A stretch of 38,112 nucleotides of DNA from a virus (taxonomy: Duplodnaviria; Caudoviricetes), in the IMG/VR virus record IMGVR_UViG_3300011339_000492, positions 1 through 38,112 of that record. The stretch is one strand, 5' to 3'. A model generated the notes under the pieces. The model ran no database searches, was not told where the DNA came from, and was given only the letters and a program-made list of their open reading frames with translations. Positions 26,173-30,463 of the stretch are shown piece by piece (the first letter of the stretch is position 1; each line of letters opens with the position of its first letter). A program made the translations under genes and the position numbers.

Positions 26173-26378
26173 TCGATCTCCGATGGTTGTGGGCGCGGCT
26201 TGCGCCCGTGTGCGGGCCTGCGGCCCAGGTGAAACGCATGGCAAAACGGGCAGTGATACACCTGCCTGCTGCGCCCGCGTCGGCTTCCTCGCTCGGCCAC
26301 GCGCTGCGCCTGGGCGAAGCTGGCGAAGGCCACCTTACCGTCACACGCGCTGGCACGATAGTCGTCGGTTGTGGTCAC
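26169..26378 (-). CDS. Small Zn-finger protein
   Basis: CDGKVAF...YHCPFCHAFHL; GTG start at 26378 overlaps the methylase stop (alternative ATG at 26396). Confidence 0.7.
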   Translation of the reverse strand: MTTTDDYRASACDGKVAFASFAQAQRVAERGSRRGRSRQVYHCPFCHAFHLGRRPAHGRKPRPQPSEIE

Positions 26379-27376
26379 GATGTCAGCAGTCGCCATGCTG
26401 TGGCTGCGCAAAGTGGCACCTGTCCGTTGCCAATGGCTTTAAGTCGGTCCACTCGAGCGGCCACCCCATGAGCCACTCGACCCACGTCGGGTTCAGTGCG
26501 CCACCAACCGCATTCGGCAGCTGCTCGCCCTTGCTGCCACCCCCGCGCTCCTCGTAGGTTTTCGCGTTGGGGTGCCTGTAGTCTCGGGCTGCAGGCGTCG
26601 GCCACGCCCGCGCCGCGCCGCCAAGGGTCGTCCCCCGCTTGGGGTGGGCGGCCGCTTTGCCCTCGCCCTTGATCTGCGGGTTGTCCTGGGTCGTGGGCGT
26701 CGGCCACATCGCTGGCACCTTGCCCTGCGCCTTGCGAACATCCCGGCCCGCAATCGCGCTGGCTTCCTCCAGCGTCATTTCTCCTGCAAGCCACTTGTTC
26801 CGCATGATCCGCTGCGTCCCCTCGCACGGCATCGTTGATGCTGTTGGCGTGGGCCACAAGCCAGAACCTGTCCCGCTGGTGCGGAGCTCCGACGTCGGCA
26901 GCTCCCAGCACTGTCCACCGGCAGTCATACCCGAGCGCGGCCAGGTCACTGAGGACTCGCCCAAGTCCTCGAGTAAGGAGGGCTGGGCTGTTCTCCACGT
27001 AGACGAAGCGTGGTCGAACCTCGCCAACGATCCGCGCCATGTGTCCCCACATTCCGCTGCGGGCTCCGTCGATTCCTGCGCCTTTGCCGGCCACGCTGAT
27101 GTCCTGGCACGGGAAGCCTCCAGACACCACGTCAACACAGCCGCGCCAAGGTCGTCCGTCAAAGGTCTGAACGTCATCCCAGATCGGGAAGGGCGGGAGA
27201 AGGCCGTCATTCTGTCGGGCAGCAAGTACGCTAGCTGCGTAGGGCTCCCACTCAACGGCGCAGACGGTTCTCCATCCAAGAAGGTGGCCGCCGAGGATGC
27301 CACCACCGGCACCGGCAAAGAGCGCGAGTTCGCGCATGCCCGCATGAGGGCGTGAGATATCAACCAACTCATTCAC
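26375..27376 (-). CDS. DNA cytosine-C5 methyltransferase, catalytic (alpha) chain
   Basis: Motif I LFAGAGG, IV GGFPCQD, VI ENSP, VIII HQRDRFW and X LKAIGNGQVP; no motif IX in this frame; GTG start at 27376. Confidence 0.92.
   Translation of the reverse strand: MNELVDISRPHAGMRELALFAGAGGGILGGHLLGWRTVCAVEWEPYAASVLAARQNDGLLPPFPIWDDVQTFDGRPWRGCVDVVSGGFPCQDISVAGKGAGIDGARSGMWGHMARIVGEVRPRFVYVENSPALLTRGLGRVLSDLAALGYDCRWTVLGAADVGAPHQRDRFWLVAHANSINDAVRGDAADHAEQVACRRNDAGGSQRDCGPGCSQGAGQGASDVADAHDPGQPADQGRGQSGRPPQAGDDPWRRGAGVADACSPRLQAPQRENLRGARGWQQGRAAAECGWWRTEPDVGRVAHGVAARVDRLKAIGNGQVPLCAATAWRLLTS
26383..27372 (-). CDS. Overlapping +1-frame partner (beta) chain of the C5 methyltransferase: WPTP cassettes plus motif IX
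   Basis: 329-aa ORF nested in the methylase; three WPTP modules; ends LNPTWVEWLMGWPLEWT (motif IX-like); ATG directly follows the upstream stop. Confidence 0.75.
   Translation of the reverse strand: MSWLISHALMRACANSRSLPVPVVASSAATFLDGEPSAPLSGSPTQLAYLLPDRMTAFSRPSRSGMTFRPLTDDLGAAVLTWCLEASRARTSAWPAKAQESTEPAAECGDTWRGSLARFDHASSTWRTAQPSLLEDLGESSVTWPRSGMTAGGQCWELPTSELRTSGTGSGLWPTPTASTMPCEGTQRIMRNKWLAGEMTLEEASAIAGRDVRKAQGKVPAMWPTPTTQDNPQIKGEGKAAAHPKRGTTLGGAARAWPTPAARDYRHPNAKTYEERGGGSKGEQLPNAVGGALNPTWVEWLMGWPLEWTDLKPLATDRCHFAQPQHGDC
26594..26857. repeat. Three 12-bp junction repeats GGCGT(C/G)GGCCAC
   Basis: At 26594-26605, 26696-26707 and 26846-26857; spacings 102 and 150 nt. Confidence 0.85.
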
Positions 27377-27870
27377 GGTGCCCCCAAAATTTCTGCAACA
27401 TCCTCCACCGACTGCACCACAGCGGCTAGGCCGCCATATAGTTGGCATACGTCGATGAGTTCCTGCTGCTCCGGTGTCGCCTTGCGCAGTCCTGGCCGTT
27501 TGCACTCCAGAAGAAACATCCTGCCATCATCCAGCATGCCGAGGTAGTCGCTCACGCCGCGCGTTTTCACGCGAGCGCCGCGCATGTAGAGCCGATAGAA
27601 CACCACATGCCGGTCACCGTCAGACACGGCCCCAGAGTTGATCCGCATGAACCACGCGACCCGAGGATGCGTGCGCAGAAACGCATGCACCTCGCGCATA
27701 ACGTCGGCCTCGGTTCGTCGTGGCTCTGCTGGTGTCGCACGTGGTGCGCGTTTGACAGGCTCAGGCGGAGCATCGAAGACCACCCGAGGGCGGTCGCTCA
27801 GTGCCGCGTAGAGGTCCATGCTGGCCTGGTTCTTGGCGATGGTTTCGCGTAGGGTTGGGCGGCGTTTCAT
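27373..27870 (-). CDS. VRR-NUC domain nuclease
   Basis: TEADV, RINSG, GVSDYLG and LECKRPG...TPEQ PD-(D/E)xK pattern. Confidence 0.88.
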   Translation of the reverse strand: MKRRPTLRETIAKNQASMDLYAALSDRPRVVFDAPPEPVKRAPRATPAEPRRTEADVMREVHAFLRTHPRVAWFMRINSGAVSDGDRHVVFYRLYMRGARVKTRGVSDYLGMLDDGRMFLLECKRPGLRKATPEQQELIDVCQLYGGLAAVVQSVEDVAEILGAP

Positions 27871-30398
27871 GCCTCGACCTGTACCGGCTGATCGGCGTCC
27901 ATTGCCTCAAGGTCAAACAGGGTGGGCATAGAGACCTGCCGCTCTGCAGCGCGCAGATAGTGGACCTGATCCATGAAATACCCTGGATTCAGTTCCGATC
28001 CACCGCCACGCCGGCCCTTGAGGATAGCCCTGTACGGCACCGTACCAAGCCCGCAGAACGGATCATAGACAAGCTCGCCCGCGTTGCTGTAACGGTCAAT
28101 CAGGCGATCTACGATGTCGAATTGCAGCGGGCATACGTGCTTTTCAACCGCGCGCCTAGACTGGTCAGAATTCAGCGTCAGCATGCGCGTAACGTCATGC
28201 CAAACATCGGGATGATGCGACCCTGGCGCAAGGCTCATGAACGTCGATGGCAGAGCCCCCTTCAAGTCAAGCTCTTCCCCGATCTTGACGTGGAATTCGT
28301 AGTCATACACCTCGGTGAGACTGTATTTCGTGAATGCCTGGGCCAGCTTTGCGGGACCAAGCGCGGCCAGCTCCTCGGCGGTCACCTGGCGGTTTCCGCT
28401 TGACCTCCAGAACGCATGAGCGTCAACCTGCCAGCGAGCGCGCGTGTAGTCGGCTTTCGACTTCGTGACTGGCACGTCAGCATATCCGCGTGTCCGGTCG
28501 GTTTGAGGCTTACGGAATAGGACGATGTATTCGGGCGACCCGCATCCCATCTTAGTGCCGTCTTTGCACTGCTCCGACCATCCGAGGCGGTAGGTCTGAT
28601 TGTTCTCGCGCACCACGTCAGTAACCACCGTGATGAGGCCCATGTAATCAAAACCATGCTTGCGCCCGTGCATGATGGCCTCGCAGTGGAACGGGCTCAC
28701 GGTCGGAGCACCGGCGCCGGTCACGTTGCCAAACAGAATCCGGTCCTTGACATGGCAAGCGTAGATGCGACCAGGCTTCAGGATGCGCAACAGTTCAGGC
28801 GTCAGGTAGTCCATCTGCGCCCAGAAATGATCGTTGTCCTCGGTGTGGCCAAAGTCGTTGTAAGACGGGCTGTATTCGTAGTGATTGGCAAACGGGATTG
28901 ACGTGACGATCAGGTCAACGTGGTTATCGGGCTTCAGCTTGGCTTCCTCCACACAATCATTGTTTGCCACGCTGAACAGGTCACTCGTGACCTCGATGCG
29001 CTGCACGCCAATAGATCGAGCCAGCGTTTCCTGCATGGCCAGTTGATTCAGCCCGTATTGCTTGATGATCTCGCTCATTTTCTGTGTCAGTTCTTCGTGT
29101 TGTTGCCACTTGGTTTGCAGGGTGCGCAGCACCTCGCGCTCGGCTTCGCTATAGATGATGTCGATGATGACCGGATGCGACTGCTGGAAGCGTTGAACCC
29201 GGTGGATGGCCTGGATGAAGTCATTGAACTTGAAGCCGATCCCCGCGAAGATTTCGCGGTGGCAATGGCGCTGGAAATTGCACCCGCTGCCAGCGATGAC
29301 AGGCTTCGTTGACAAGATGCGGAACTTGCCGTTGCCGAAGCTGACGATGCGGTCTTCGCGCTCCTCAAGGTCTTGAGAGCCCCACACGCTCACGGCTTCG
29401 GGTATGGCCTGCTGTATCGCGTGGCGCTCCGTCTCCAGGTCATGCCAGATGACGAAGTGGTCATCAGGCGAAGCGTTGACGATCTCGGCGGCTTTGGCCA
29501 CGCGGCCCGGCATGCTGTCGCGCTTCTCGCCGGCTGCGGCAGAGAGCCCCATCGCAGGGTCCGTGAACATGAGCACCTGACCATCGCGGTCTGAGCCTGC
29601 TTTGCTGTAGTCGCTTGGCACTTCGTGATAGCGCACCTCCAGCGCCGGCAGGTCGTATCCCTCGTCGCTATATCCAAGGTCGCTTGGGCGCTGCACGAAC
29701 ACGGCCCAGCTTGACACCCAAAGCCAGAACTCTTGTTCTTTGTGCGGGTACAGGGTCAGGTTCCCAGCCTTCTCAGAGTCGCGCTGGAAAAACCGAGTCA
29801 GCGCCTGGCCAGTGTCCATGACGCCGAGGAACCCGGCATAGTGGATCAGTTCTTTGAAGCGGTTGGGCGATGGCGTGGCCGTGTTAACCAGCTTAAAGCG
29901 CACGCCCTCGAACAGCGGCAGGAACTCCTGATAGGTCTTTGACCCGAAGGAGCGCAGCACGCTCGCTTCGTCCAAGCTCACGGCCGTAAACATGGCCGGG
30001 TTCAGCTTGCCATCGCGCACAGTTTCATAGTTCGTGCAGTAGAAACCGCCGAATGGCGAGACCTCATCGGGCGAGCGTATGAACTTCAGTTCAATCCCCA
30101 GCATCGCCGCATCGCGGATCAGTTCCTGACGCACCCCGAGAGGGCACACGATCAGGCCAGCGCCGCCGAATTGAATGATGATCTGCCGCAGCCATTCGCA
30201 CTGCATGACGGACTTGCCAAGCCCGAAGCTGGCGAAGATGGCCCGATTGCCGCCGCGCACTGCCCAGCGCACGATGTCGCGCTGGTGCGGGAACAGAATA
30301 GGGTTCACGTCCTGCGCCTGCAGGTCGAACCCCGCGAAGTTGGCCATGCGGATTTTCTGTCTCAGAAAGTCCGCGTATCTGTCATCTTGGTTTTGCAT
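27867..30398 (-). CDS. SNF2-type helicase fused to an N4/N6 DNA methyltransferase
   Basis: FGLGKS, LDEAS, TATP and QAIHRVQRFQQ; then IVTSIPF (motif IV) and DPFCGLGT (motif I). A GGAGGT SD favours a start near 30398 (ORF track start 30425). Confidence 0.9.
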   Translation of the reverse strand: MQNQDDRYADFLRQKIRMANFAGFDLQAQDVNPILFPHQRDIVRWAVRGGNRAIFASFGLGKSVMQCEWLRQIIIQFGGAGLIVCPLGVRQELIRDAAMLGIELKFIRSPDEVSPFGGFYCTNYETVRDGKLNPAMFTAVSLDEASVLRSFGSKTYQEFLPLFEGVRFKLVNTATPSPNRFKELIHYAGFLGVMDTGQALTRFFQRDSEKAGNLTLYPHKEQEFWLWVSSWAVFVQRPSDLGYSDEGYDLPALEVRYHEVPSDYSKAGSDRDGQVLMFTDPAMGLSAAAGEKRDSMPGRVAKAAEIVNASPDDHFVIWHDLETERHAIQQAIPEAVSVWGSQDLEEREDRIVSFGNGKFRILSTKPVIAGSGCNFQRHCHREIFAGIGFKFNDFIQAIHRVQRFQQSHPVIIDIIYSEAEREVLRTLQTKWQQHEELTQKMSEIIKQYGLNQLAMQETLARSIGVQRIEVTSDLFSVANNDCVEEAKLKPDNHVDLIVTSIPFANHYEYSPSYNDFGHTEDNDHFWAQMDYLTPELLRILKPGRIYACHVKDRILFGNVTGAGAPTVSPFHCEAIMHGRKHGFDYMGLITVVTDVVRENNQTYRLGWSEQCKDGTKMGCGSPEYIVLFRKPQTDRTRGYADVPVTKSKADYTRARWQVDAHAFWRSSGNRQVTAEELAALGPAKLAQAFTKYSLTEVYDYEFHVKIGEELDLKGALPSTFMSLAPGSHHPDVWHDVTRMLTLNSDQSRRAVEKHVCPLQFDIVDRLIDRYSNAGELVYDPFCGLGTVPYRAILKGRRGGGSELNPGYFMDQVHYLRAAERQVSMPTLFDLEAMDADQPVQVEA

Positions 30399-30463
30399 CA
30401 TCACCTCCGCGCCTAAGCGCATCATCTGCCGCGCTCAAGGCCGCGCGGCTTGGCCTCATCTTG

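Follow-up and report, generated by a model that had tools for sequence, protein, structure and literature searches.

Two overlapping frames of a phage gene likely encode a two-chain C5 DNA methyltransferase with exchangeable WPTP modules

C5 cytosine methyltransferases carry their TRD between motifs VIII and IX, as stated in PMC5944983, and two described layouts come close to the phage gene analyzed here. In M.EcoHK31I (YGGCCR), the beta chain is wholly nested in the other frame of the alpha gene, with motifs I-VIII and X in alpha and motif IX in beta, and the TRD is reported in alpha (PMC2836561), within a restriction-modification system of one specificity. In temperate Bacillus phages, several TRDs are arrayed in one C5 chain, with resistance to many restriction systems, according to two reports (PMC8936443, PMC12707154). 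Relaxed-specificity prophage m5C enzymes (JCM7686_0772/2655, ARM81mr_p29) resemble the present gene in being phage orphan C5 enzymes that lie near replication genes and give broad protection, but they are about 700 aa long and the descriptions consulted mention no two-frame layout. M.AquI, a naturally split and monospecific C5 methyltransferase, has genes that are not nested, and its beta chain holds motifs IX and X.

Compared by description with M.EcoHK31I, the phage family shares a nested beta chain with motif IX and an alpha chain with motifs I-VIII and X in 231 of 244 loci. It differs in an alpha linker without frame-specific conservation, in 1-7 exchangeable beta modules and in its location in a phage replication region. 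With the Bacillus-phage enzymes (SPR, phi3T/SPbeta, rho11s and H2), the family shares the nature of a phage orphan enzyme and tandem exchangeable units between motifs VIII and IX; its WPTP is also weakly like their TL cores, in register. Those enzymes, however, are single chains in one frame with few known TRDs, whereas the phage family has two overlapping frames, shorter units that start at the TL-like core, at least 163 unit types and no significant HMM or profile match. A division similar to that of M.AquI is seen in the 6 of 244 loci with motif X in the beta frame, while most of the family keeps motif X in alpha. The family appears to work like a Bacillus-phage multispecific methylase and to be built like M.EcoHK31I, missing one defining feature of each (the single chain of the former and the TRD in alpha of the latter). 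Two layouts, each known from few enzymes, are here combined in a very large family: the beta profile, searched against 1.84 billion representatives, matches 38,538 clusters at E<=0.001 and 21,117 of them at E<=1e-10. A search of the open-access literature found no description of a two-frame module-array family.

Two overlapping frames in one gene

The window, by which we mean the whole stretch of DNA analyzed, is a complete-looking virus record of 38,112 bases with 62% GC and P22-like portal and coat genes, and its best independent sequence matches come from riverine and freshwater metagenomes. The methylase gene lies on the minus strand inside the replication block, with the following features:

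26375..27376, minus strand: alpha chain, C5 cytosine methyltransferase, with motifs I-VIII, an unconserved linker over the modules, and motif X; start at GTG 27376 or ATG 27337
26383..27372, minus strand: beta chain, +1 frame, 329 aa, starting 4 nt after the alpha GTG, with a lead-in, three modules and motif IX
27343..27372, minus strand: beta N-terminal peptide, upstream of alpha motif I in the window's lineage and conserved in the beta frame
26861..26878, minus strand: alpha motif VIII (QRDRFW), the same bases forming the fixed beta lead-in to module 1
26446..26496, minus strand: motif IX-like segment in beta, LNPTWVEWLMGWPLEWT, nearly invariant in alignments and under beta-frame selection
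26378..26455, minus strand: motif X in alpha, beginning RVDRLKAIGNGQVP, under alpha-frame selection

The alpha open reading frame (27376-26375) is stop-free throughout, matches PF00145 (E 7e-33), phrog_363 (E 3e-70) and M.HhaI (E 5e-17 over residues 11-181), and contains C5 motifs I-VIII, including the catalytic PCQ, ENS and R-x-R. Beta matches phrog_1008 (E 1e-25); it has no Pfam match in the window, and 53 homologs gave chance hits only. We take LNPTWVEWLMGWPLEWT to be motif IX from its position and from the motif IX consensus.

For comparison, 320 related loci and 7 annotated phage regions were combined with the window into 328 sequences, of which 54 were duplicates, 30 were not parsed and 244 were parsed. 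The layout of the window holds for 231 of these; of the others, motif X lies in the beta frame in 6, alpha is interrupted by a stop in 5 and a frameshift is present in 2. The six with motif X in the beta frame (L026, L046, L191, L258, L260 and L303) carry it behind an insert, in an M.AquI-like division. The shift of motif X to the beta frame is also seen in proteins P0099, P0115, P0118 and others. A second set held 150 representatives, 132 of them parsed.

Selection by codon position switches along the gene. Over motifs I-VIII, differences fall at alpha third positions, with identities of 74-89% in alpha and 49-56% in beta. Inside the modules, it is the beta third positions that carry most of the differences in each of the 30 types compared (mean 0.14/0.10/0.39 by beta codon position), with module amino acid identity of 86% in beta vs 55% in alpha; beyond them, motif IX favours beta and motif X favours alpha. 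Alpha is nevertheless stop-free over the modules in 234 of 242 loci, where 4.7 would be expected and the third frame is open in 10, and over the catalytic region 233 of 237 loci have no stop in beta, where 0.26 would be expected, with 68 of 68 among loci found with alpha. On this comparative sequence evidence both frames are real, the unfavoured one being kept open on each stretch, and the gene likely encodes a two-chain C5 DNA methyltransferase. The preliminary description of the window had proposed that alpha passes through the array as a tolerant linker, which agrees well with a stretch that is unconserved over the modules yet almost always open. Because alpha has to reach motif X, the length of each unit must be a multiple of 3 nt and must contain no alpha stop.

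Translation of beta from a separate start of its own is indirectly suggested by the open frame and by N-terminal conservation off motif I. In 22 distinct extended starts, variation is least at beta codon position 2 (0.46/0.22/0.54), vs 0.04/0.31/0.14 in 52 standard starts. The window itself has a 39-base N-terminal extension (27337-27376) between the beta start and alpha motif I, and extensions of 27-81 bases occur in about 22 loci with the beta peptide kept, a natural partial un-overlapping of two genes.

Beta had also been described as an unannotated frame. This holds for Pfam and for the 7 of 7 GenBank regions that annotate one frame only, but not for PHROG 1008, which matches beta and is labelled 'DNA methyltransferase', as is the alpha match, PHROG 363; the two labels make no reference to overlap, modules or exchange. 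Some Streptomyces and Paenibacillus phage records have two coding sequences beneath the match; as a rule, one frame alone is annotated. In Acidovorax phage Alfacinha1, the beta frame is annotated as a methylase and alpha is without annotation. In phiBT1, alpha stops just past motif VIII and is labelled 'may be inactive', and the beta frame goes on with modules. Labels of inactivity such as that on phiBT1 gp9.1 may have arisen since cloning the annotated frame alone, with its own start, would not always be revealing.

An intact natural single chain was found in 0 of 244 loci and in none of the 150 representatives. Five of the 150 (P0155, P0194, P0215, P0223 and P0225) join part of alpha to beta shortly after PCQ; these are predicted proteins only, motifs VI and VIII are absent from them, and four of the five cross at glycine-rich stretches. 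Judged from their sequences, the joined proteins are probably products of indel errors or slippage.

A shared library of exchangeable modules

Between motifs VIII and IX, the beta frame of the window carries three modules, each beginning at a copy of a 12-mer:

26707..26856, minus strand: module 1, WPTPTAS, type T08, 50 aa, with a predicted two-helix core
26605..26706, minus strand: module 2, WPTPTTQD, type T20, 34 aa
26497..26604, minus strand: module 3, WPTPAARD, type T21, 36 aa, followed by LNPTWVEWLMGWPLEWT
26846..26857, minus strand: 12-mer copy 1, coding for WPTP and a microhomology; VAHA in alpha
26696..26707, minus strand: 12-mer copy 2; VADA in alpha
26594..26605, minus strand: 12-mer copy 3; VADA in alpha

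The three modules, the 12-mers, their spacing of 150 and 102 nt and the openness of both frames were all confirmed as originally reported, and the 12-mer pattern has exactly 3 matches in the 38-kb record. All of 242 loci carry at least one module, and a gene has 1-5 of them. Clustering of the 569 modules in these loci gives 163 types, 44 of which have at least three members, in 197 different arrangements. The 132 parsed members of the second set have 1-7 modules per gene and 131 arrangements, and 77 of the 80 loci found with alpha have one or more modules, with 2 not parsed and 1 frameshifted. These module counts are lower bounds, as the search pattern overlooks some degenerate starts (4 of 13 'single-module' loci show a second by eye), and the boundaries between types depend on the chosen clustering threshold. 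Modules are about 25-50 aa long (median 33 aa) and have the consensus W-P-T-P-T-A-S-D-x-K-G-G, followed by a variable basic loop and then L-x-x-A-V; net charge is positive in 87% of the 163 types.

Module content changes rapidly relative to the catalytic domain. Of 138 pairs whose catalytic parts are at least 90% identical, just 12 have an arrangement in common. When module presence is traced on the catalytic-domain tree, its changes are about as many as after shuffling for most of 14 types; T00, T01, T02, T06 and T07 are clustered to some degree. A fixed module set is ruled out by these pairs and by the 197 arrangements, and the modules are exchangeable units from a shared library, gained, lost and swapped among related phages, varying in number and identity among homologs as had been anticipated for this locus. 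Shuffling is not free, however, as T05, T06, T11, T13 and T15 are always last and other types never are. T01, T03, T16, T22 and T31 are found both as the sole module and internally. A gene with two modules of one type is found in 1 of 242 loci (8.6 expected) and in 0 of 132 (6.7 expected), a scarcity that could come from instability of identical tandem copies.

The window's own modules follow the same picture. Each of its three types is found with other partners elsewhere; type T08 is the first module in 11 of 12 carriers and never the last, type T21 is the last in 5 of 6, and neither module 1 nor module 2 is found alone or last among the 242 loci. The closest protein, P0003 (77%), has the same modules 1 and 2 and a third of another type. 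By eye, a module like module 2 is also present in an E. coli P2-like phage and a Klebsiella phage whose catalytic domains are distant.

Exchange takes place at the codons for WPTP. Where two genes have the upstream module in common (64 junction pairs), their identity persists at a high level across the WPTP codons and drops beyond them; where the downstream module is the common one (89 pairs), identity rises at the W codon. Five locus pairs were aligned by hand for indels and swaps: L026 and L046 are set apart by a single module, which has an 11-base direct repeat, lying in the WPTP codons, on either side; L008/L172 have a module swapped between direct repeats in these codons; the first module distinguishes L033 from L226 and two blocks distinguish L017 from L235; and L259/L289 have an indel within a module, at another microhomology. 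A 300-base contig from a run of another study (X12) matches 26468-26695 and 26846-26917 with 9 differences (97% identical) and omits exactly the 150 bases of module 1, with its joint inside the 12-mer. The contig is from a close relative and not a variant in the window's own population. No module-number variants of that population were present among the contigs of the possible source runs X1 and X2, in which assembly into contigs drops rare variants. In X7, a contig of low depth gives a match to modules 2 and 3.

The expectation that breakpoints would lie at the 12-mer is therefore borne out for the junction pairs and the X12 contig, all of which place them in the stretch coding for WPTP, but not for the at least one indel at a different microhomology inside a module. 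The 12-mer likewise serves as a microhomology, judging from the X12 joint, but it is the coding sequence of a conserved peptide and not a conserved DNA site. W-P-T-P dictates 9 of its 12 bases, and 39% of 49 WPTP modules of similar GC3 match it, giving a probability of about 0.06 for three in a row by chance. The protein-level WPTP repeat is thus far beyond chance, and the DNA-level repeat is not independent of it. A dedicated DNA repeat is ruled out by a match in only 51 of 295 WPTP modules, and homogenization of the 12-mer within a gene by an agreement of 0.368 within vs 0.373 between GC3-matched genes (108 pairs, p 0.67). As the 12-mer is unconserved as DNA, it is the conserved WPTP peptide that supplies the microhomology.

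What the modules may recognize

Alpha is unconserved between motifs VIII and IX, so a recognition element conserved in this slot would have to belong to beta. When five Bacillus-phage enzymes were scanned with a profile built from the beta lead-in together with the first WPTP, a TL-type core came top in 5 of 5, in register. The resemblance is weak, with shuffle p values of 0.005, 0.05, 0.435, 0.14 and <0.005, and a single TRD accounts for three of the five top hits. The modules begin at the supposed TL core, and the Bacillus TRDs have about 20 residues of their own ahead of it. A generic module HMM against SPbeta MtbP gave E 0.86, hhalign of modules against known TRDs gave a probability of 0.3%, PDB sequence searches with beta returned 0 and 2 non-significant hits, and the ESM Atlas yielded no usable match. 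Beta predicted alone has a poor fold (pTM 0.26; pTM 0.21 for a one-module beta fragment of L226), and Foldseek with this pTM 0.26 model found no match at E<=0.001. Among 1,738 tests of module-motif association in the DNA flanking 186 loci, none was significant after correction (best q 0.13). In the 19 carriers of T02, GGCC is in non-significant excess in the flanking DNA (r 0.29, q 0.13), which is a lead for the target of this type.

Position, selection, duplicate avoidance and the weak resemblance to the TL core together suggest a TRD role for each module, and we favour, with somewhat more than even confidence, a correspondence of one module to one motif, by which the enzyme would be multispecific. 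The main rival to multispecificity is relaxed specificity, in which the modules would be loops that bind DNA and either raise affinity or broaden or adjust a loose target (a dinucleotide core), rather than each giving a clean motif of its own. Prophage m5C methylases of this kind are known from protection assays, as reported in PMC3925955 and PMC5537653 (also PMC6536676), and the modules are short and variable in length (25-48 aa), their 163 types are many for distinct motifs of 4-6 bases, and the flanking DNA gave no clear module-motif signal. The known relaxed enzymes, however, are of about 700 aa and are not described as two-frame genes in PMC5537653; moreover, each module type is conserved separately across distant catalytic clades, and duplicates are avoided, whereas plain avidity would tolerate repeats. 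We regard relaxed specificity as unlikely on balance.

The strong position bias, with five types always last and others never, would fit a gene in which only the last module, beside motif IX, is a TRD and those upstream are a silent reservoir moved in by recombination. Yet nine never-last types are under beta-frame purifying selection, which would not persist in a silent store, nor can a type act as a reserve for the last position if it never arrives there, leaving this reading with very little probability indeed. Much the same standing is given to the proposal that the modules are short beta peptides for host or phage protein contacts, with specificity fixed in the beta lead-in or in alpha, which we hold to be very improbable. 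Protein contacts would suit three observations: the modules show no significant match to known TRDs, module 1 is predicted to form a two-helix unit on its own, and the M.EcoHK31I TRD is reported in alpha (PMC2836561). On the other hand, at least one module always lies between motifs VIII and IX, and the basic charge and TL-like start point to DNA. As for recognition in alpha, 217 of 231 standard loci have a W..EP segment in alpha ahead of motif X, but most loci whose motif X has left the overlap with motif IX lack this segment, which thus looks like a by-product of beta.

Our preferred reading, which we consider probable as a whole, is a two-chain C5 enzyme whose exchangeable beta modules each read their own DNA sequence, so that several motifs are methylated and host restriction is blunted. 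Beta would be translated from its own ATG and assemble with alpha as in M.EcoHK31I. WPTP(T)A(S)D would be the equivalent of the TL core, with the loop behind it reading bases, and the modules would alternate at a single catalytic site, as in the Bacillus-phage multispecific enzymes. Exchange would proceed by short-homology recombination, for which the phage's YqaJ/RecT pair is a candidate, and the purpose of multi-motif methylation would be anti-restriction. If one module corresponds to one specificity, the 5mC protection of a phage would be predictable from sequence once the common types are decoded, module turnover would gauge the restriction arms race directly, and methylases with chosen targets could be built from short parts of the library. 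The broader view, of a phage family of tens of thousands of sequence clusters engaged in combinatorial anti-restriction with hundreds of minimal 25-50-residue motif-specific modules reshuffled at the WPTP codons, is in our estimate evenly balanced. If this combinatorial reading is true, the family would be a natural programmable library of 5mC specificity, far beyond the handful of Bacillus-phage TRDs, and its modules a readable record of the restriction enzymes met by phages.

Phage context of the methylase gene

The surroundings of the gene include a second methylase and a recombination pair:

Replication block, in order: helicase-N6/N4 methylase fusion, VRR-Nuc-like protein, C5 methylase gene, SSB, HNH nuclease, primase
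27867-30425: 852-aa fusion of a helicase-like domain and an N6/N4 DNA methylase; this second methylase lies two genes upstream of the C5 gene
32528-33925: YqaJ exonuclease and RecT-family genes, a Red-like recombination pair on the opposite strand, about 5 kb from the C5 gene

An assembly artefact was rejected, as the possible source runs hold one contig identical over 26470-26943 and a run of another study has a contig identical over 26622-26924, both of which cross module junctions. A promoter scan found 1 site, the same number as in shuffled sequence, and no RNA run was among the listed runs containing the window sequence.

Several palindromes are strongly avoided in the window with both strands summed: CCGCGG occurs 0 times vs 44 expected, TCGCGA 0 vs 29 and CGGCCG 8 vs 80. 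AGGCCT and AGCT are also avoided over 1-38112, while GCGC is in excess (1246 vs 1093 expected) and GCCGGC is without depletion. Together with the Bacillus-phage precedent, these missing palindromes suggest by analogy an anti-restriction role for the enzyme. Among 5,426 complete E. coli genomes, 66 carry chromosomal relatives of the ESSI2 phage version of the gene.
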